Translations under genes and position numbers: made by a program
Notes under the pieces: generated by a model
Database searches by the model: none
What the model saw: the letters and a program-made list of their open reading frames with translations, nothing else
Told to the model about the DNA's origin: nothing
Part shown: piece after piece, positions 1,686 through 8,598 of the stretch
Numbering within the stretch: position 1 is the stretch's first letter
How the letters are laid out: each line of letters starts with the position of its first letter
Virus genome (UHGV): UHGV-0069955
Reading direction: 5' to 3' (one strand)
Origin: a virus
Length of the DNA stretch: 12,124 nt

Positions 1686-2165
1686 TTAAATTGCGTGAAT
1701 AGCGTGACGAGGGAAGGGGAGAGTTACTGGTTCCTCGTCTGGGTAGATAGGTTTGTTATGTTTGTGCCACTCGACATGGCATGACTTGCAGAGCCACATC
1801 ACATCGGTTGGTTTGCTGTAGTCGCAGTGGTGCGCCTGTGGTTTACATTCTGATCCGCAGCACTCACATTGTGGTGGTCGGATTAGCTTACCGTCGCGCA
1901 AAAAATTACCCACGATGATGTGGGCTTTTCTTTTCCATGGGTTGCTCTGAATGAACCGCTTTTTGGCTGCGTTACACCGTCCTCTGCCGCGTTCCGATGA
2001 TTGATATTCTCTCCTTGCTGATACTCGATGTGGCAATCCCGCGCGCTCTTTGTCGTATTCAGCCAGGCAAGCCCGGCAAGCGGCAGTTAATCCATCTCTG
2101 GATGCTCTTCTGATTTGAAAGTCCCTTTCTTCCTTCTGTTGATGGCATCTTGAGCAGATTTTCAT
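1686..2165 (-). CDS. HNH-family endonuclease with N-terminal Cys-rich (zinc-ribbon-like) region, 159 aa
   Basis: C-terminal ...AHHCDYSKPTDVMWLCKSCHVEWHKH fits the HNH motif (HH...D...LC..CH..H). N-terminal CSRCH...CRAC Cys pairs. AGGAG Shine-Dalgarno overlaps the SSB stop codon. Confidence 0.6.
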   Translation of the reverse strand: MKICSRCHQQKEERDFQIRRASRDGLTAACRACLAEYDKERAGLPHRVSARREYQSSERGRGRCNAAKKRFIQSNPWKRKAHIIVGNFLRDGKLIRPPQCECCGSECKPQAHHCDYSKPTDVMWLCKSCHVEWHKHNKPIYPDEEPVTLPFPRHAIHAI

Positions 2166-2174
2166 ATTCAGCTC

Positions 2175-2648
2175 CTAGAACGGAATATCCGAATCGTCGA
2201 AGTTCATAGGTGGTTCGCTGTGATTTCCATGCTGCTGAGGTTGCTGTCTTTGTTGCTGACCGTTATTTCGCTGAGGTGAAGACTGTTCATTGCCTCCTTG
2301 CTTGCCACCAAGCATTTGCATGGTTCCACCAACGCCCACGATGACTTCGGTAGTGAACCTATCCTGTCCGCTTTGATCCTGCCATTTTCTTGTCCGTAAT
2401 TTGCCTTCAAGATAAACCTCAGAGCCTTTTCGCAGATATTCGCTGGCAATTTCTGCCAGTTTCCCGCTCATTACCACACGGTGCCACTCCGTCTGCTCCT
2501 TTTGCTCTCCAGTTTGCTTATCACGCCATTGTTCTGACGTAGCAACTGTAAGGTTTGCAAATGCCGTTCCTGATGGTGAGTATCGAACTTCCGGGTCTTG
2601 TCCTACCCGACCAAGGATAATCACCTTATTTATCCCGCGAGAACTCAT
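2175..2648 (-). CDS. ssb: Single-stranded DNA-binding protein (SSB), 157 aa from ATG at 2648
   Basis: [27 protein letters not shown]...TEWHRVV...Gly/Gln-rich linker...C-terminal acidic tail DDSDIPF is the classic bacterial/phage SSB OB-fold and tail. The ATG overlaps the upstream HNH stop (ATGA). ORF track's 2657 start is an upstream GTG. Confidence 0.9.
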
Positions 2649-3112
2649 TTGCTCCACCTCTTGCCAGTTTTTATGTTGCTTATAATTGATTGAGATACAC
2701 CCATGTCTTTTGCTATCTTGTACTGACTCTCTTTTTCAGAGAGTCTTTTCCTAATTTCTATAACCTGCCACTCTGTTAATTTTGCACCATGATGAGCATG
2801 ACCTTTCTTGGCTCCACGATGCCTTCCTTTTGCTATCTTGTCGTCCATGTTTTCTTGCGCGCTACCTAAAAAGAGATGTTCAGGATTAACGCAGCATGGG
2901 TTATCGCATTTGTGGCAAACCATCTTCCCAGATGGAATGGGGGAGTGATAAAGCTCAAAAGCAACACGATGAGAAAGCATTGTTACGCCAAAGGCTACAA
3001 ATTTTGTGTATCCTCCTTTGTTTTTTGAATAGGTAGACTCCCAGCAACCTGTTGTTTCATTAACTTTGTAGCTGGACTCGAATCTTTTAATAATTCCGTC
3101 CAAGTGAGACAT
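2645..3112 (-). CDS. HNH endonuclease (HNH_3-type) with C-terminal helix-turn-helix, homing-endonuclease-like, 155 aa
   Basis: [17 protein letters not shown]...[12 protein letters not shown]...[26 protein letters not shown] is the HNH_3 signature. C-terminal [42 protein letters not shown] looks like an HTH. ATG directly follows the SSAP stop (TAAATG). Confidence 0.75.
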
Positions 3113-3820
3113 TTATGCCGCCTGTTTTAGTTCGTTAACTCTGATGTTCATTACCTGAACGCATTTAGCCTGCGCCTCCTCGTTGCCAGCCATTAATTGC
3201 CAGTCACGCTGATAACGCTCGATGAGTTTTTTCTTGTCAGTTTCTGTTGACGCATAATCGCTGAAGTCTTTCAGGATTTGTTCGCAGTCAACCGATGGAG
3301 ATTTCTGGTTGGTATTTTCTGGTGATGGTTTGTTATCTGATGCTGGGATTGCCCATCCAGGCAGCGATGGAGGGAGCCAGTAAAATCCTGTTCCATCCTT
3401 CAGTTTTGCCCTGTGCCACCCCTGCTTTTTATCGAGAGATGTTTGTGCAAAACCTTCCTCAAGGTTATACAGATACCGACCGATTCCCCACTGAACGGCA
3501 GCACGCTTCATTGCACCTGAACGACCACCTTTGACGGCTTCTACCTGCGTGTTTTCAGCAGCATCCCATTTGGTTACCCATTCGGAATCAATCTTGATTG
3601 ATATGCCGCATTCAACTCCGCCGTTGTTGGGAATATCGCGGTATTCATTGCGCCATCCTGCTTTGCCGCAAACATCGTCCAGGCGTTTCATGATTGCCCG
3701 GTTCGTGACATAAGCCAGCACCATAGCCCACACCTTGCCATCGCGTGTTTTACCGCTTTGCTGTATTCGCCATTCGATATCTTCAGGGCTGAATGGCTCA
3801 TCGAATTTGTTCAAATCCAT
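3113..3820 (-). CDS. Rad52-like single-strand annealing protein (phage recombinase, Sak-like), 235 aa
   Basis: ...GISIKIDSEWVTKWDAAENTQVEAVKGGRSGAMKRAAVQWGIGRYLYNLEEGF carries the KRAAV.(F/W)GIGRYLY hallmark I associate with phage Rad52/22-family SSAPs. Sits where lambda has bet. GAGGTG Shine-Dalgarno. Confidence 0.7.
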   Translation of the reverse strand: MDLNKFDEPFSPEDIEWRIQQSGKTRDGKVWAMVLAYVTNRAIMKRLDDVCGKAGWRNEYRDIPNNGGVECGISIKIDSEWVTKWDAAENTQVEAVKGGRSGAMKRAAVQWGIGRYLYNLEEGFAQTSLDKKQGWHRAKLKDGTGFYWLPPSLPGWAIPASDNKPSPENTNQKSPSVDCEQILKDFSDYASTETDKKKLIERYQRDWQLMAGNEEAQAKCVQVMNIRVNELKQAA

Positions 3821-3828
3821 AATTCACC

Positions 3829-3999
3829 TCAGAATGGACACGGCCCAAGAAAATAACGCTGATTTAATACTTCGACTCGGGACAAATTAAGGCATACCCG
3901 CATTCCTTCGCGGTCGCCATTATGGCGATACCAGAGAGCTTTCTGCGTGTACATGCGTCTCTGTAACTTGCTCTCCTTCACTGTGGTTGCAAGTGACAT
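3829..3999 (-). CDS. Small hypothetical protein, 56 aa (MSLATTVKESKLQRRMYTQKALWYRHNGDREGMRVCLNLSRVEVLNQRYFLGPCPF)
   Basis: Not in the ORF track (<60 aa). ATG at 3999 with an AGGAG Shine-Dalgarno 7 nt upstream. Overlaps the next small ORF by 80 nt in another frame, so only one of the two may be real. Confidence 0.35.
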   Translation of the reverse strand: MSLATTVKESKLQRRMYTQKALWYRHNGDREGMRVCLNLSRVEVLNQRYFLGPCPF

Positions 4000-4078
4000 G
4001 AATATCTCCTTCGTTACCGATTAATTCTTTCATCTGACGAATGAATTCTTCGTCTGACCAGTTATCTGTAAAACTCAT
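3920..4078 (-). CDS. Small hypothetical protein, 52 aa (MSFTDNWSDEEFIRQMKELIGNEGDIHVTCNHSEGEQVTETHVHAESSLVSP)
   Basis: Not in the ORF track. ATG at 4078 overlaps the stop of the Kil-like ORF (ATGA). Weak AGGAA Shine-Dalgarno. Acidic. Confidence 0.3.
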   Translation of the reverse strand: MSFTDNWSDEEFIRQMKELIGNEGDIHVTCNHSEGEQVTETHVHAESSLVSP

Positions 4079-4227
4079 TTCCTGCGATACCACGGAAGGT
4101 TGATAGCTGATTTCATCGCTTTATTTGCTTCAAGCCACATTTTGGAATCACCAATAAATCTGGCTATTACTGCTTTGTTTTGTGCTGCACGAAGCATCTG
4201 GTGATTGATGGCTATTTCATTGCGCAT
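4075..4227 (-). CDS. Kil-like small protein (candidate host cell-division inhibitor), 50 aa
   Basis: MRNEIAINHQMLRAAQNKAVIARFIGDSKMWLEANKAMKSAINLPWYRRK. The ...ARFIGDSKMW... core resembles lambda Kil (...ATFIGDEKMF...) as I recall it. GGAGG Shine-Dalgarno 5 nt upstream. Position (between CIII-like and the recombinase) matches lambda kil. Confidence 0.45.
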   Translation of the reverse strand: MRNEIAINHQMLRAAQNKAVIARFIGDSKMWLEANKAMKSAINLPWYRRK

Positions 4228-4346
4228 AACGCCTCCAGTTGTTTCTTTGCTGCTCTGATTAATTGTTTAACTCGGCGTGATAATTCAGATTCGTGCGGGT
4301 AGAAAGCGGACATGACGCCGCTACCCGCGAGCTGAAAGTGCATCAT
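4212..4346 (-). CDS. CIII-like small protein (candidate FtsH-inhibitor family), 44 aa
   Basis: MMHFQLAGSGVMSAFYPHESELSRRVKQLIRAAKKQLEALCAMK. Resembles lambda CIII (..AIAG.PV.....SESLLERITRKLRDGWKRL) in the AG...ESxL...R..K.L region. AAGGAG Shine-Dalgarno 6 nt upstream. The upstream part of the 79-aa track ORF is rejected because it spans the terminator at 4412-4436. Confidence 0.45.
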   Translation of the reverse strand: MMHFQLAGSGVMSAFYPHESELSRRVKQLIRAAKKQLEALCAMK

Positions 4347-4411
4347 GGGTAACTCCTTATATTTGATTGCATAACGAAAACGCCTCGAGTGAAGCGTTAT
4401 TGGTATGCATA

Positions 4412-4436
4412 TAAAAAAGCCCTCACACTGGAGGGC
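4412..4436 (-). terminator. Rho-independent terminator on the leftward transcript (tL-like), upstream of the cIII/kil genes
   Basis: Minus strand reads GCCCTC-cagtgt-GAGGGC followed by TTTTTTAT (plus strand gccctc 4419-4424, gagggc 4431-4436, A-tract 4412-4418). An N-antiterminated pL transcript would read through it. Confidence 0.6.
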
Positions 4437-4498
4437 AAAGAAGATTTCCAATAATCAGAACAAGTCGGCTCCTGTTTAGTTACGAGCGACATTGCTCC

Positions 4499-4526
4499 GT
4501 GTATTCACTCGTTGGAATGAATACAC
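4499..4526. other. Perfect 9-bp inverted repeat (stem-loop/possible protein binding site) in the intergenic region
   Basis: gtgtattca (4499-4507), 10-nt loop, tgaatacac (4518-4526). No clean U-tract on either strand. Confidence 0.4.
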
Positions 4527-4570
4527 AGTGCAGTGTTTATTCTGTTGTTAGTGCCAAAAATAAAGGCCGA

Positions 4571-5194
4571 CTATGCGGACTCGGAAGGAAGTCCAATCAT
4601 CTTATTCAAATCTTCTACCCGTAAAGCAGGAAGTGCTGTACTTGCTTTGTCTGCTTCTTTTGGTAGCAATTCTTTGCTTTCAGGCCAAACTTCAATAAGT
4701 CGCTTAACTGTTGTGACTGAGTTCAAAGCAGCCCATACATTTGATTCGATATCCTTTTTCTTGGCTTCAAGTTTTTGTTGCAATGCGCAGATTTCATCAA
4801 ACCTTTTTGTTATTTCGTGTTCTGCATCAAACATGCATTTATCTTTGGTTGGAGTAGGGAGCAATATATCTTCGCCGTTGCCGTCTTTCCCATATGAATG
4901 CCATCCAACCCTTCTGCCAGATACAGTCAGATAAATTGAAGTAGAACGAACATCGTATGAGTAAAATGAACATCCCATCTTTTCAAGTTCTTCACTTATA
5001 GCTACTAACCTGGATGATAACTGATCCACTTCCTCAGTTTTCTTTTTACCGCCAAACGCAATAACTCTGGCGTCAAGTGCAAGCTGGTTCTTTAACTTTG
5101 TTACTTCTTCAAGTTCAGTGAAAACCCCAGACTTAATTAAAGCGTTACGAGCGATTTTCTCTTTCATTCTCGTAGTTAAGCGGATTGATGACAT
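4571..5194 (-). CDS. Hypothetical low-GC accessory (moron) protein, 207 aa from ATG at 5194
   Basis: Strong GAGAGGAA Shine-Dalgarno 5 nt upstream of the ATG at 5194 (track's 5209 start is TTG). Visibly AT-rich relative to the lambda-like flanks. Translation MSSIRLTTRMKEKIARNALIKSG... is Lys/Glu-rich with no motif I recognise. Confidence 0.6.
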   Translation of the reverse strand: MSSIRLTTRMKEKIARNALIKSGVFTELEEVTKLKNQLALDARVIAFGGKKKTEEVDQLSSRLVAISEELEKMGCSFYSYDVRSTSIYLTVSGRRVGWHSYGKDGNGEDILLPTPTKDKCMFDAEHEITKRFDEICALQQKLEAKKKDIESNVWAALNSVTTVKRLIEVWPESKELLPKEADKASTALPALRVEDLNKMIGLPSESA

Positions 5195-5251
5195 ATTAAT
5201 TCCTCTCAAATAAGTGGTTTGCTGCGAAAGTAAATACGCTTAAGTTACCTG

Positions 5252-5389
5252 TTATTTATCCCACCAAGTTCCGTATCTATCTATCCAGTTACACCAATCA
5301 TCGACACTCCATTTTGTTGTGTCGCATTTTGGCAACTGGCATGAATATCTACCTTCTTTGTAAAGTCGGCGTTTGACTTTCTTGAGCAT
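5252..5389 (-). CDS. Small Cys/Trp-rich hypothetical protein, 45 aa (MLKKVKRRLYKEGRYSCQLPKCDTTKWSVDDWCNWIDRYGTWWDK)
   Basis: Not in the ORF track. ATG at 5389 with a GAGGTG Shine-Dalgarno that overlaps the N stop codon. Cys residues spaced in a zinc-ribbon-like pattern. Confidence 0.35.
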   Translation of the reverse strand: MLKKVKRRLYKEGRYSCQLPKCDTTKWSVDDWCNWIDRYGTWWDK

Positions 5390-5397
5390 GGCTCACC

Positions 5398-5730
5398 TCA
5401 ATCGTAATAAGCTGGAATTGATTTTCCGCGTTGCTTCTGGCGACCAACACAAGTCACACCCATTTCACTGCGTGGCTTGCTGTACCATGTGCGCTGATTC
5501 TTGCGTTCAATACGTTGCAGGTTGCTTTCAATCTGTTCGTGGTATTCAGCCAGCACCGTAAGGTCTATCGGATTCAGTGCGCTTTCTACTCGTGATTTCG
5601 GTTTGCGATTCAGCGAGAGAATAGGGCGGTTAACTGGTTTTGCGCTTACCCCAACCAACAGGGGATTTGCTGCTTTCCATTGAGCCTGTTTCTCTGCGCG
5701 ACGTTCGCGGCGGCGTGCTTGTGCATCCAT
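5398..5730 (-). CDS. N: Antitermination protein N (lambda-type), 110 aa from ATG at 5730
   Basis: MDAQARRRERRAEKQAQWKAANPLLVGVSAKPVNRPILSLNRKPKSRVESALNPIDLTVLAEYHEQIESNLQRIERKNQRTWYSKP... is near-identical to lambda N as I recall it, including the Arg-rich boxB-binding motif. AGGAG Shine-Dalgarno upstream. Track's 5820 start is an upstream extension. Confidence 0.92.
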   Translation of the reverse strand: MDAQARRRERRAEKQAQWKAANPLLVGVSAKPVNRPILSLNRKPKSRVESALNPIDLTVLAEYHEQIESNLQRIERKNQRTWYSKPRSEMGVTCVGRQKQRGKSIPAYYD

Positions 5731-5840
5731 CTGGATTCTCCTGTCAGTTAGCTTTGAGTAACGCGCCGTGATGCTTATCTCCACGGTTGCTGTCTTGCAG
5801 CTGCATTTCGCGCTACTCAAAGCTTTCTGCTTTGAATGCC

Positions 5841-5871
5841 GCCCTTCTTCAGGGCTAAATTTTTAAGAGCC
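5841..5871 (-). promoter_or_regulatory. nutL: nutL (boxB 5841-5855, boxA 5863-5871)
   Basis: Minus strand reads GCTCTTAAAAATTTAGCCCTGAAGAAGGGC: boxA-like GCTCTTA plus the boxB hairpin GCCCTGAAGAAGGGC, matching lambda nutL as recalled. Confidence 0.8.
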
Positions 5872-5904
5872 TCACCTTCAATGGTGGTTAGTGCGTCCTG
5901 CTGA

Positions 5905-5974
5905 TGTGCTTAGTATCACCGCCAGTGGTATTTATGTCAACACCGCCAGAGATAATTTATCACCGCAGATGGTT
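5905..5974 (-). promoter_or_regulatory. pL promoter with operators OL1 (5914-5930), OL2 (5938-5954), OL3 (5958-5974)
   Basis: Three 17-bp operator half-site pairs: tatcaccgccagtggta, caacaccgccagagata, tatcaccgcagatggtt. On the minus strand, -35 TTGACA (complement of 5935-5940) and -10 GATACT (complement of 5912-5917) are 17 bp apart. Confidence 0.8.
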
Positions 5975-6126
5975 ATCTGTATGTTTTTTATATAGATTTA
6001 TTTTTTTGCAGGGTTGTGTGGATTGGGAAGGTGATCGAGAGATCTGAATTGCGATGTTTAGTGAGTTGTATCTATTAATTTTGAAATAAATACAATTGGT
6101 TATGCGTTTTTTGGGGGATCGTGAGG

Positions 6127-6165: not shown

Positions 6166-6522
6166 TTAGTGAGGTAGTGATGGCATCATTTTTATTATTA
6201 ACCCAACACCAGTTCCAACGGCTGCAAGAACTGAACCAATAATAGCCATGGCTTGGAGTCTCATTGCGCTGTGAAGTTCTGCTTTTGCATTAGCTATGTC
6301 TGTTTTAACAGATTCTACATTGGCAGATGTTGCATAGTTAGACTTAATTACAGCGATGTCGGTCGCCATGGTTGCGACTTTATCTTCAAGAATTTTTATG
6401 CGCTGTAACATGTCACCACCTCCACCGTTACCACCACCATATGTCTCATCATTATGGTGGTTATGTGGAAAATTATCAACTTTACTCCTGTCAAGAGGCA
6501 CAGCGTACAGATGTCGTTTCAT
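6166..6522 (-). CDS. Hypothetical tail-anchored membrane protein, 118 aa (gene B of the cI-linked cassette)
   Basis: N-terminal His/Gly-rich low-complexity stretch (NFPHNHHNDETYGGGNGGGGD), central amphipathic/coiled-coil-like segment (MLQRIKILEDKVATMATDIAVIKSNYATSANVESVKTDIANAKAELHSAMRLQ), and one C-terminal hydrophobic helix (AMAIIGSVLAAVGTGVGLIIKMM). ATG at 6522 overlaps the gene A stop (ATGA). Confidence 0.55.
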   Translation of the reverse strand: MKRHLYAVPLDRSKVDNFPHNHHNDETYGGGNGGGGDMLQRIKILEDKVATMATDIAVIKSNYATSANVESVKTDIANAKAELHSAMRLQAMAIIGSVLAAVGTGVGLIIKMMPSLPH

Positions 6523-6959
6523 TCCTTATCTCTGTTCGGGGTGGTTGAAATAAGAGCGCATTTTTTTTCATCAATAACTTCGCTAAGATTACCATCAATG
6601 TCTTCAAAGATGCGATAAATTATGTCATATGTTCCTGTTTCTATAAGTTTGATGTTTTTAACGAAAAGATATGTGCCAACCACAACATATTTTTCATTGA
6701 CAGGAGAAAACATAAATGTTTGCAGTTGCTCTTGATTGCTAGAGATATCAGGTAAAACCGATTCTCCATTGAATACGACATCAAGTTCGGTAGTGTATTT
6801 TTTTTCGTGCTCGAAGTACATTATTGCAGTTAGGTAAAATGAGCCGGAACAAGGGTATTCTTCCGACACTATTATAGGATCTGGTGTCATAAAAGGAGTG
6901 ATTGCCAGCCCGGGTTTTACCGCCGTTGTGTAGATTGTTATTATTTTTTCTTCTCTCAT
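6519..6959 (-). CDS. Hypothetical soluble protein, 146 aa (gene A of the cI-linked cassette)
   Basis: ATG at 6959 with an AAGGA Shine-Dalgarno; starts 18 nt after the cI stop codon, so probably co-transcribed with cI. Very AT-rich coding sequence. No hydrophobic helix; beta-rich-looking composition. Confidence 0.6.
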   Translation of the reverse strand: MREEKIITIYTTAVKPGLAITPFMTPDPIIVSEEYPCSGSFYLTAIMYFEHEKKYTTELDVVFNGESVLPDISSNQEQLQTFMFSPVNEKYVVVGTYLFVKNIKLIETGTYDIIYRIFEDIDGNLSEVIDEKKCALISTTPNRDKE

Positions 6960-7782: not shown

Positions 7783-7992
<210 letters not shown>

Positions 7993-7999
7993 ATAACCC

Positions 8000-8031
8000 C
8001 GCTCTTACACATCCCAGCCCTGAAAAAGGGC
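8000..8031 (+). promoter_or_regulatory. nutR: nutR (boxA 8000-8009, boxB 8017-8031)
   Basis: cgctcttaca (boxA) then gccctgaaaaagggc (boxB hairpin), immediately downstream of cro. Confidence 0.8.
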
Positions 8032-8094
8032 ATCAAATTAAACCACACCTATGGTGTATGCATTTATTTGCATACATTCAATCAATTGTTATCT

Positions 8095-8140
8095 AAGGAA
8101 ATACTTACATATGGTTCGTGCAAACAAACGCAACGAGGCT
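8095..8140 (-). promoter_or_regulatory. pRE-like CII-dependent promoter (leftward) spanning the cII start
   Basis: Minus strand carries TTGCGTTTGTTTGC (complement of 8120-8133), the TTGC-N6-TTGC CII-binding direct repeat at -35, as in lambda pRE. Confidence 0.55.
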
Positions 8141-8404
8141 CTACGAATCGAGAGTGCGTTGCTTAACAAAATCGCAATGCTTGGAACTGAGAAGACAGCG
8201 GAAGCTGTGGGAGTTGATAAGTCGCAGATCAGCAGGTGGAAGAGGGATTGGATTCCAAAGTTCTCAATGCTGCTTGCTGTTCTTGAATGGGGTGTCGTTG
8301 ACGACGACATGGCTCGATTGGCACGACAAGTTGCTTCGATTCTCACCAATAAAAAACGCCCGGCGGCAACCGAGCGTTCTGAACAAATCCAGATGGAATT
8401 CTGA
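8111..8404 (+). CDS. cII: CII transcriptional activator (lambda-type), 97 aa from ATG at 8111
   Basis: MVRANKRNEALRIESALLNKIAMLGTEKTAEAVGVDKSQISRWKRDWIPKFSMLLAVLEWGVVDDDMARLARQVASILTNKKRPAATERSEQIQMEF matches lambda CII. Track's 8051 start is an upstream extension. Confidence 0.92.
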   Translation: MVRANKRNEALRIESALLNKIAMLGTEKTAEAVGVDKSQISRWKRDWIPKFSMLLAVLEWGVVDDDMARLARQVASILTNKKRPAATERSEQIQMEF

Positions 8405-8426
8405 GGTCATTACTGGATCAATCCAC
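8350..8426 (-). ncRNA. oop: oop-like antisense RNA overlapping the cII 3' end
   Basis: Region 8350-8426 closely matches the complement of lambda oop RNA as recalled; its 3' end is a GC-rich hairpin (8357-8376) followed on the minus strand by TTTTTTAT. Exact ends inferred by analogy with lambda. Confidence 0.5.
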
Positions 8427-8436
8427 AGGAGTAATT

Positions 8437-8598
8437 ATGACAAAACGTCGTAAGAAATACCAGGAAAAAGAAGAGATTCGACACCCTGATTCACCTGAGG
8501 GATTAGTGGTAGCCGCAGCAAATAACAGGGCGTTCGCAGAGCGCCTTGTTGGTGTTTACAGACTAGCCAAAGCAGGAGTGAAACATGGGCGTCGTTAA
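8437..8598 (+). CDS. Small basic hypothetical protein, 53 aa ([53 protein letters not shown])
   Basis: Not in the ORF track. ATG at 8437 with an AGGAG Shine-Dalgarno, in the position where lambda O starts. Its 3' end overlaps the O start by 14 nt in another frame. Confidence 0.35.
   Translation: MTKRRKKYQEKEEIRHPDSPEGLVVAAANNRAFAERLVGVYRLAKAGVKHGRR

Follow-up and report, generated by a model that had tools for sequence, protein, structure and literature searches.

The DNA analysed here, a stretch of 12,124 nucleotides (nt) from UHGV virus genome UHGV-0069955 (hereafter the window), is the early region of a lambdoid phage or prophage with lambda immunity. On its minus strand, between the antitermination gene N and cIII, it carries a gene (4571–5194, running from an ATG at 5194 to a stop at 4571) for a protein of 207 amino acids (aa) that belongs to the Nmad5 family, short for 'nucleotide modification associated domain 5'. 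The best explanation we can offer for this protein, held with a confidence just short of even, is that it is an early, non-enzymatic helical binding or adaptor protein acting on phage DNA replication or recombination. As a sequence feature the locus is not new: public phage genomes and the RefSeq annotation already record the gene, the family and where it lies. An initial annotation had placed the gene and its neighbour orf45, an open reading frame (ORF) of 45 codons, correctly in coordinates and frame and had described them as a low-GC moron and its partner, with a possible role in anti-restriction, exclusion or host takeover. That observation is partly confirmed and its interpretation partly supported.

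The 207-aa protein matches Pfam PF18757 (Nmad5) at E 3.7e-72 with 243.2 bits (cut-off 27), its residues 4–203 aligning to profile positions 1–206 of 206, and phrog_1965 at E 1e-83. As orf45 also matches a curated Pfam family well above threshold (see below), the initial statement that no motif was recognisable does not hold. The protein is 99.5% identical to gp37 of phage mEp235 and 97% identical to gp33 of HK542, both annotated as hypothetical, and the product name assigned by PGAP/RefSeq in Escherichia coli prophages is 'Nmad5 family putative nucleotide modification protein'. No match was found in NCBIfam, neither the 207-aa protein nor orf45 matches any PADLOC family at E ≤ 1, and neither shows similarity to Ral or Lar in Pfam or PHROGs. 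When 1.84 billion representatives were searched with the Nmad5 profile, 2272 clusters (50% identity) were retrieved at E ≤ 1e-3. Within the best 150 of these, nearly all proteins are ~190–230 aa long and match the full profile, the few shorter ones being probably partial. The ratio of nonsynonymous to synonymous polymorphism (pN/pS) among 54 distinct near-identical copies is 0.29–0.31, which points to purifying selection, and both ORFs are real genes. Nmad domains were reportedly defined by Iyer et al. in 2013, and to our knowledge no biochemical activity is known for any Nmad5 member. The literature search returned nothing on PF18757, phrog_1965 or DUF5484 (the family of orf45) and nothing functional on mEp235, HK542 or HK244.

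The composition of the gene agrees with the initial description. The GC content is 0.397 (GC3 0.33) in this gene and 0.399 in orf45, whereas N has 0.505 and the whole window 0.466; the 207-aa protein is rich in Lys and Glu (22 K, 21 E). Its ribosome-binding site had been counted among the strongest in the window, but the duplex of its Shine–Dalgarno (SD) sequence, GAGAGGAA, with the anti-SD is worth only −6.0 kcal/mol, which places the gene 18th among 23. A conserved antisense gene within the Nmad5 gene (a 133-aa plus-strand ORF at 4533–4934) was considered and rejected, as the ORF is not kept in the Providencia or Serratia homologues. No RNA family of Rfam was found in the window.

An AlphaFold2 model built from 23 homologues (mean pLDDT 86, pTM 0.70) predicts a soluble helical protein. 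A short N-terminal strand is followed by helices at residues 8–22, 24–47 and 50–72, in keeping with the helical N-terminus expected initially, then by a small beta region (86–125), a long helix (127–158) and short C-terminal helices; model confidence is low at residues 184–191 and 205–207. No membrane segment is predicted. Foldseek found nothing in the PDB below its best E of 0.24, a BFVD search returned only other Nmad5 proteins, and a profile search of PDB sequences gave no match. As judged from the model, Nmad5 has no significant relative among solved structures.

Only G48, E172, P178 and N197 are invariant across 62 diverse Nmad5 members, with R5, I14, A18, R43, G49, G93, T162, L166, W170, P171, L176, L188, L196 and G201 being nearly so, and no conserved set of His, Asp and Cys residues was found among these members. 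The conserved core of the protein runs T162-x-K164-R165-L166 ... W170-P171-E172 ... L188-P189 ... D195-L196-N197 ... G201-L202-P203. In its general form, T-x-K-[KR]-L-x3-W-P-E ... L-P ... D-L-N-x2-I-G-L-P, this C-terminal core is invariant or nearly invariant in two alignments and is also present in YuA gp15 and in Nmad5 of phage SM_A8. To judge by the alignments, the pattern looks like one of turns, core residues and a binding surface rather than of a catalytic centre, from which we infer a non-enzymatic protein. The string TVKRLIEVWPE had also raised the idea of an excisionase or winged-helix-like C-terminal domain, which was abandoned: isolated C-terminal fragments match no helix-turn-helix (HTH) family even at E ≤ 10.

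The link to replication and recombination comes from the genomic context of the homologues. A distant set of 80 IMG/VR loci was reduced to 32 lineages at 80% identity. The commonest order, on one strand, is a ~300-aa protein, a DUF2800 PD-(D/E)XK nuclease, an Enc34-type SSB, Nmad5, a family-A DNA polymerase (PolA) and VRR-NUC, and this order recurs across lineages whose Nmad5 proteins are less than 80% identical. Within five genes of Nmad5, a replication-type neighbour is found in 17 of the 32 lineages, a nuclease plus SSB in 12, PolA in 9 and a repressor in 6, these counts having no background control. Related arrangements are found in individual phages. N4-like FSL SP-058 has the order DNA polymerase, ThyX, Nmad5, exonuclease, primase, Sak4, SSB; in eiAU and Jersey-like phages Nmad5 adjoins a helicase-primase or Pol I; and in Pseudomonas phage Amjad_SA it lies between a PDDEXK nuclease and an AAA_24 ATPase. 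YuA carries it between a 5-hmdU DNA kinase and a hydroxymethylase, upstream of PolA (PF18748 and PF18723 are neighbours). In Dhillonvirus, Nmad5 is an opposite-strand islet in the head module, and Vibrio phages have it as islets in tail modules or among small early genes. DUF4406 and C5-methylase genes lie near some homologues. As for homology to a housekeeping phage function, which the initial annotation had set against its own interpretation, homologues do lie repeatedly inside replication modules, but no known function comes with them.

We also noted that the ~300-aa protein, which has no Pfam match, always precedes the DUF2800/Enc34-SSB/Nmad5/PolA module (e.g. 2164–3066 of one IMG/VR locus). 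It looks like another component of that replication module. At the same position in a Providencia prophage (7794–8573) is a 259-aa protein that by eye resembles a homologue, with a shared C-terminal LILQLAKGGYR...EG.

The early character of the protein is suggested by the layout of the locus. In the order of minus-strand transcription, the window contains pL, nutL, N, orf45, the Nmad5 gene, two terminator-like hairpins and cIII, followed leftward by genes for Kil, a Rad52-type annealase, an HNH endonuclease, SSB and Abc2. The pL promoter (5912–5940, minus strand) has the exact lambda hexamer pair, TTGACA-17-GATACT. A simple consensus scan of 4150–6100, which weak or non-sigma-70 promoters could escape, found no other promoter-like site between cIII and the rex slot. 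A hairpin found by sequence and hairpin scan at 5841–5855 (minus strand; GCCCTGAAGAAGGGC) corresponds to the boxB element of lambda nutL; a plus-strand terminator called over the same positions was dismissed as a scan artefact, the hairpin belonging to the minus-strand pL transcript. The lambda-type antiterminator N (110 aa) is encoded at 5398–5730 (minus strand). The gene orf45 begins 8 nt past the N stop, and its SD sequence, GAGGTGA, overlaps that stop, as the initial annotation had seen. Next comes a conserved 31-nt linker, GCAGCAAACCACTTATTTGAGAGGAATTAAT (5195–5225, minus strand), which was delimited by junction alignment and holds the SD sequence of the Nmad5 gene.

Downstream of the Nmad5 gene, the scan found a first intrinsic-terminator-like hairpin (GCCCTC...GAGGGC followed by T6; 4419–4436, minus strand) and a second one (4379–4398, minus strand) directly 5' of the next gene of the pL operon, an HK97/HK022-type cIII (44 aa, 4212–4346, minus strand). 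The hairpins lie 135–190 nt downstream of the Nmad5 gene and could equally be the tL-type terminators of the operon. The terminator scan found no intrinsic terminator-like site between N and the Nmad5 gene. Since pL is the only promoter detected by the scan and HK542-type arrangements leave just 11 nt between N and the gene, we infer that the Nmad5 gene is part of the pL operon. It would probably be co-transcribed with N in the immediate-early pL transcript, before antitermination, because the first intrinsic terminator-like sites come after the gene, and it would be silent in the lysogen. Prophages of Serratia, Providencia and Pantoea, whose homologues are 43–52% identical, have Nmad5 as the first or near-first gene leftward of a CI-like repressor, and this position next to the repressor supports an early role. 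In lambda, the N-proximal early-left slot carries ral, sieB and ea10.

If Nmad5 acts on replication or recombination, it would bind DNA or a replication or recombination protein. The contact surface proposed from the alignments would consist of the conserved basic residues R5, K21, R43, K52, R95, K164 and R165 and of the conserved, partly disordered C-terminal segment WPE...LP...DLN..IGLP. In lambdoid phages the protein would not modify nucleotides, since the partner enzymes are absent there. Several points weigh against this explanation. Its mechanism is drawn from context and conservation only, as no experiment or structural relative gives the function. The neighbour counts lack a background control, and phage early operons are rich in replication genes anyway. 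Lambdoid phages encode no DNA polymerase, so a polymerase-linked role cannot apply in them, and the isoelectric point of the protein, 7.65, is atypical for a DNA binder. The scan cannot see rho-dependent terminators, so one may lie between N and the Nmad5 gene. The islets in head and tail modules of Dhillonvirus and Vibrio phages look more like a free-standing accessory or counter-defence gene. Finally, the sole experimental result, obtained with the Tmn system, concerns defence and not replication (PMC11846954).

In that study, Dhillonvirus mutants escaping Tmn carried Nmad5 K216E (SM_A8) or K296E (SMS22); reverting the Nmad5 mutation restored Tmn sensitivity, deletion of the gene did not let the phage escape, and attempts to clone the gene failed, apparently owing to its toxicity (PMC11846954). 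In a gap-free alignment, K216 of SM_A8 corresponds to R165 of the window protein, which precedes the WPE motif by four residues. Since K216 lies within the most conserved motif, the most conserved segment of the family is functionally sensitive. Nmad5 could thus be a counter-defence or defence-interface protein, made immediate-early, that neutralises host immunity or is sensed by it, for example by the KAP-type NTPase Tmn. Ral, Gam and Abc2, which act from the same operon, would be the models for such a role. We regard this role, the main rival of the best explanation, as possible, if on balance unlikely; the initially suggested functions in anti-restriction or host takeover are likewise possible. 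Apart from the escape mutations and the correspondence of K216 to R165, it would suit a stand-alone, dispensable gene of patchy distribution (6% of E. coli genomes; disrupted by an insertion sequence in Stx2a phages) that forms islets in the head or tail modules of unrelated phages and takes the first position in the early-left operon, the slot also of lambda ral. However, Nmad5 has no PADLOC match and no homology to Ral, Ocr/Ard, Gam or Abc2. The Tmn result concerns a gain-of-function allele of a homologue that is only distantly related, with 33% identity across the C-terminal 101 residues, and does not imply inhibition by the wild type. Moreover, anti-defence genes, whose position tends to be hypervariable, would not normally show conserved synteny in replication modules.

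A role in replication and one in counter-defence are compatible if Nmad5 protects or marks replication intermediates. A bolder proposal, which we consider rather doubtful, is that Nmad5 represents a widespread, structurally new class of immediate-early factors coupling the replication and recombination machinery to host immunity. Were this true, such proteins, which make up more than 2000 clusters (50% identity) from temperate and virulent phages of Proteobacteria, could shield replication intermediates or engage sensors such as the Tmn NTPase, and most of them would be misnamed by the 'nucleotide modification' label.

The family name stems from YuA/M6-like phages, in which Nmad5 lies within a thymidine hypermodification cassette (PMC9476957). 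That Nmad5 is an accessory of nucleotide or DNA modification, helping to install or tolerate a modified base, is nevertheless very unlikely in our view. Its place beside the 5-hmdU DNA kinase and hydroxymethylase in these phages (PMC9476957) would be explained, as would ThyX adjoining it in FSL SP-058 and the DUF4406 and C5-methylase genes near some homologues. Yet the window encodes no nucleotide- or DNA-modification enzyme (hydroxymethylase, kinase, aGPT-Pplase or transferase), and none is present in the early-left regions shown for HK542 and mEp235; catalytic residues are not conserved, and most of the contexts examined are free of modification genes. A neighbourhood of modification enzymes is a contextual feature of some Nmad5 members and not of the profile.

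We consider it highly improbable that the gene is a moron expressed from the prophage for superinfection exclusion or lysogenic conversion. A GC content below that of its neighbours, a terminator-like hairpin downstream and a slot that holds sieB in lambda would all agree with such a role, but strictly virulent phages (N4-like, Dhillonvirus, YuA) often carry homologues, and exclusion is unlikely because the only upstream promoter-like site is pL, which is repressed by cI, no membrane segment is predicted and PADLOC gives no match. Of the moron initially described, the deviant composition and the nature of an accessory cassette stand, whereas a promoter of its own does not, pL being the only one in the scan.

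The neighbouring gene, orf45 (5252–5389, minus strand), encodes a small Trp-rich protein that matches Pfam PF17583 (DUF5484; E 2.6e-12, 46.7 bits, cut-off 27) and phrog_1871 (E 1.4e-22) and is homologous to Sf6 gp36 and T-even gp55.4. SfI gp44 ('similar to Sf6 gene 36') shares 98% identity with it, and T-even-type homologues, from T2 and from T4-like phages of Klebsiella, Pectobacterium and Enterobacter, share 41–52%; the T-even homologue is annotated as gp55.4 in T2, RB14 and PP01. A homologue search with the orf45 protein returned near-identical copies only. In an alignment of six sequences, K6, R7, L9, K11, G13, P20, K21, T24, W27, W32, I36, D37, G40 and W42 are invariant. The zinc-ribbon-like Cys spacing of the initial annotation was not upheld, the protein having just three Cys (C17, C22 and C33) in place of four ligands, none of them conserved in the homologues: the T-even proteins have Leu, Ile, Asp or Ser for C17 of the lambdoid copies, Gly for C22 and Ile for C33. 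We know of no function for any DUF5484 member.

Nmad5 and orf45 are inherited independently of each other, which speaks against their description as partners. HK542 has N, 11 nt and then Nmad5, and mEp235 has N, Nun and then Nmad5, both without orf45. SfI has N, orf45 and ral without Nmad5, and phi458 likewise has N, orf45 and then other genes. Only ~5 of 80 IMG/VR loci with an Nmad5 at least 95% identical to that of the window contain orf45. The 841-bp Nmad5–orf45 region, most of which is Nmad5, is matched in 345 of 5426 complete E. coli genomes (6%), just 10 of which have both genes contiguous. The window, HK542 and mEp235 have the same linker before Nmad5, of which SfI has the first ~22 nt (GCAGCAAACAACTTATTTGAG, one mismatch) before a different gene. 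In the window, the stretch that begins ~12 codons before the end of N and includes orf45 is of the SfI/Sf6 type; by this comparison, a phage of that type evidently supplied the orf45 cassette and the C-terminal end of N as one piece. As read from these junctions, the window is a recombinant of two independent cassettes joined at the conserved linker. To the idea that orf45 and Nmad5 form a functional two-gene unit, as their adjacency, common strand and similar GC content in the window might suggest, we give next to no credence, given their co-occurrence in so few near-identical loci (~5 of 80) and genomes (10 of 345), the presence of either without the other in SfI and phi458 or in HK542 and mEp235, the recombination junction between them, and the location of T-even orf45 homologues in the gene 55/nrd region, with no Nmad5 among the neighbours shown.

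The core of the linker, GCAGCAAAC[CA]ACTTATTTGAG, takes up ~22 nt of the 31-nt stretch 5195–5225 and precedes different genes in different lambdoid phages (Nmad5 in HK542 and mEp235, another gene in SfI). From these alignments, the linker marks the exchange point of early-left cassettes and resembles a boundary sequence for mosaic recombination. The accessory region as a whole is an ordinary mosaic. The IMG/VR loci pair Nmad5 with several types of N and with recombination modules of the Abc2/Erf, Abc2/Rad52 or Bet/Exo/Gam kind; a tie to one particular recombination module was rejected, since the three module types leave no exclusive link. Some loci carry Ral and Ea10-like genes alongside Nmad5.

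In 48 records of Stx2a-converting phages, Nmad5 matches from residue 34 only. In the one examined, Stx2_EH1965 (2589–4522), the gene is split after codon 37 by an insertion of ~1.3 kb that encodes two IS3-family transposase ORFs, with codons 34–37 duplicated. Nmad5 is predicted to be inactivated in these Shiga-toxin phages, and, as it is split by an IS3-family insertion there, it is dispensable. The initial assignment to the N-proximal early-left accessory slot was right, and the gene is a dispensable mosaic cassette.

Three other features of the window were observed. The rexA/rexB slot between N/pL and cI (6166–6959, minus strand) holds two leftward ORFs, one of 146 aa (6519–6959, GC 0.36) and one of 118 aa (6166–6522) whose product has a hydrophobic helix at its C-terminus. 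For the 146-aa protein, neither Pfam, PHROGs and PADLOC nor a tblastn search of 50,697 phage records gave a match; the cassette occurs in only 4 of 5426 complete E. coli genomes, where it is annotated as hypothetical. The pair is a rare candidate for a prophage-expressed exclusion or defence pair and is more novel than the Nmad5 finding. Between SSB and the Rad52-type annealase lies an HNH_3 endonuclease gene with an HTH tail (2645–3112, minus strand, GC 0.41), which overlaps the start of the SSB ORF and probably arose by homing-type insertion; in other prophages, too, HNH_3/AP2 genes are repeatedly found close to Nmad5. Further along, a Cys-rich ORF of 159 aa (1686–2165, minus strand) has no Pfam match but matches phrog_2340 (endonuclease), and its N-terminus weakly matches a Lar-like restriction-alleviation PHROG.

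The value of the locus is that mEp235 and HK542 offer a tractable lambdoid model for a large uncharacterised phage family, with a gene that is dispensable and probably expressed together with N. A function established in a lambdoid phage would explain the gene in the replication modules of N4-like, YuA-like, Jersey-like and Enc34-type phages and would test the family name.

Among known systems, the closest are mEp235 (gp37), HK542 (gp33, F864_gp33) and HK244 (orf01), which, like the Nmad5 entries of RefSeq, have the same gene (97–99.5% aa identity). In all three phages it occupies the same position from N/Nun to cIII, with the same upstream linker and downstream terminator region, and these loci differ from the window only by having no orf45 between N and Nmad5. 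The Nmad5 proteins of the Dhillonviruses PhiSMS22 and SM_A8 also match the full Pfam profile, share the core T-x-K-[KR]-L...WPE...DLN..G.P with the window protein and are stand-alone accessories. Unlike it, they are 254–334 aa long, are 33% identical over the C-terminal half only and belong to virulent siphoviruses. YuA gp15 and its M6-like relatives match the full profile too, with 45% identity over residues 121–207, but lie between a 5-hmdU DNA kinase and a dUMP hydroxymethylase, neither of which is encoded in the window. Ral, SieB and Ea10 of lambda share with Nmad5 the slot and the pL-driven early unit; they show no sequence or profile similarity to it and are not mutually exclusive with it. 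As for orf45, its conserved Lys and Trp positions are shared with T-even gp55.4, Sf6 gp36 and SfI gp44.

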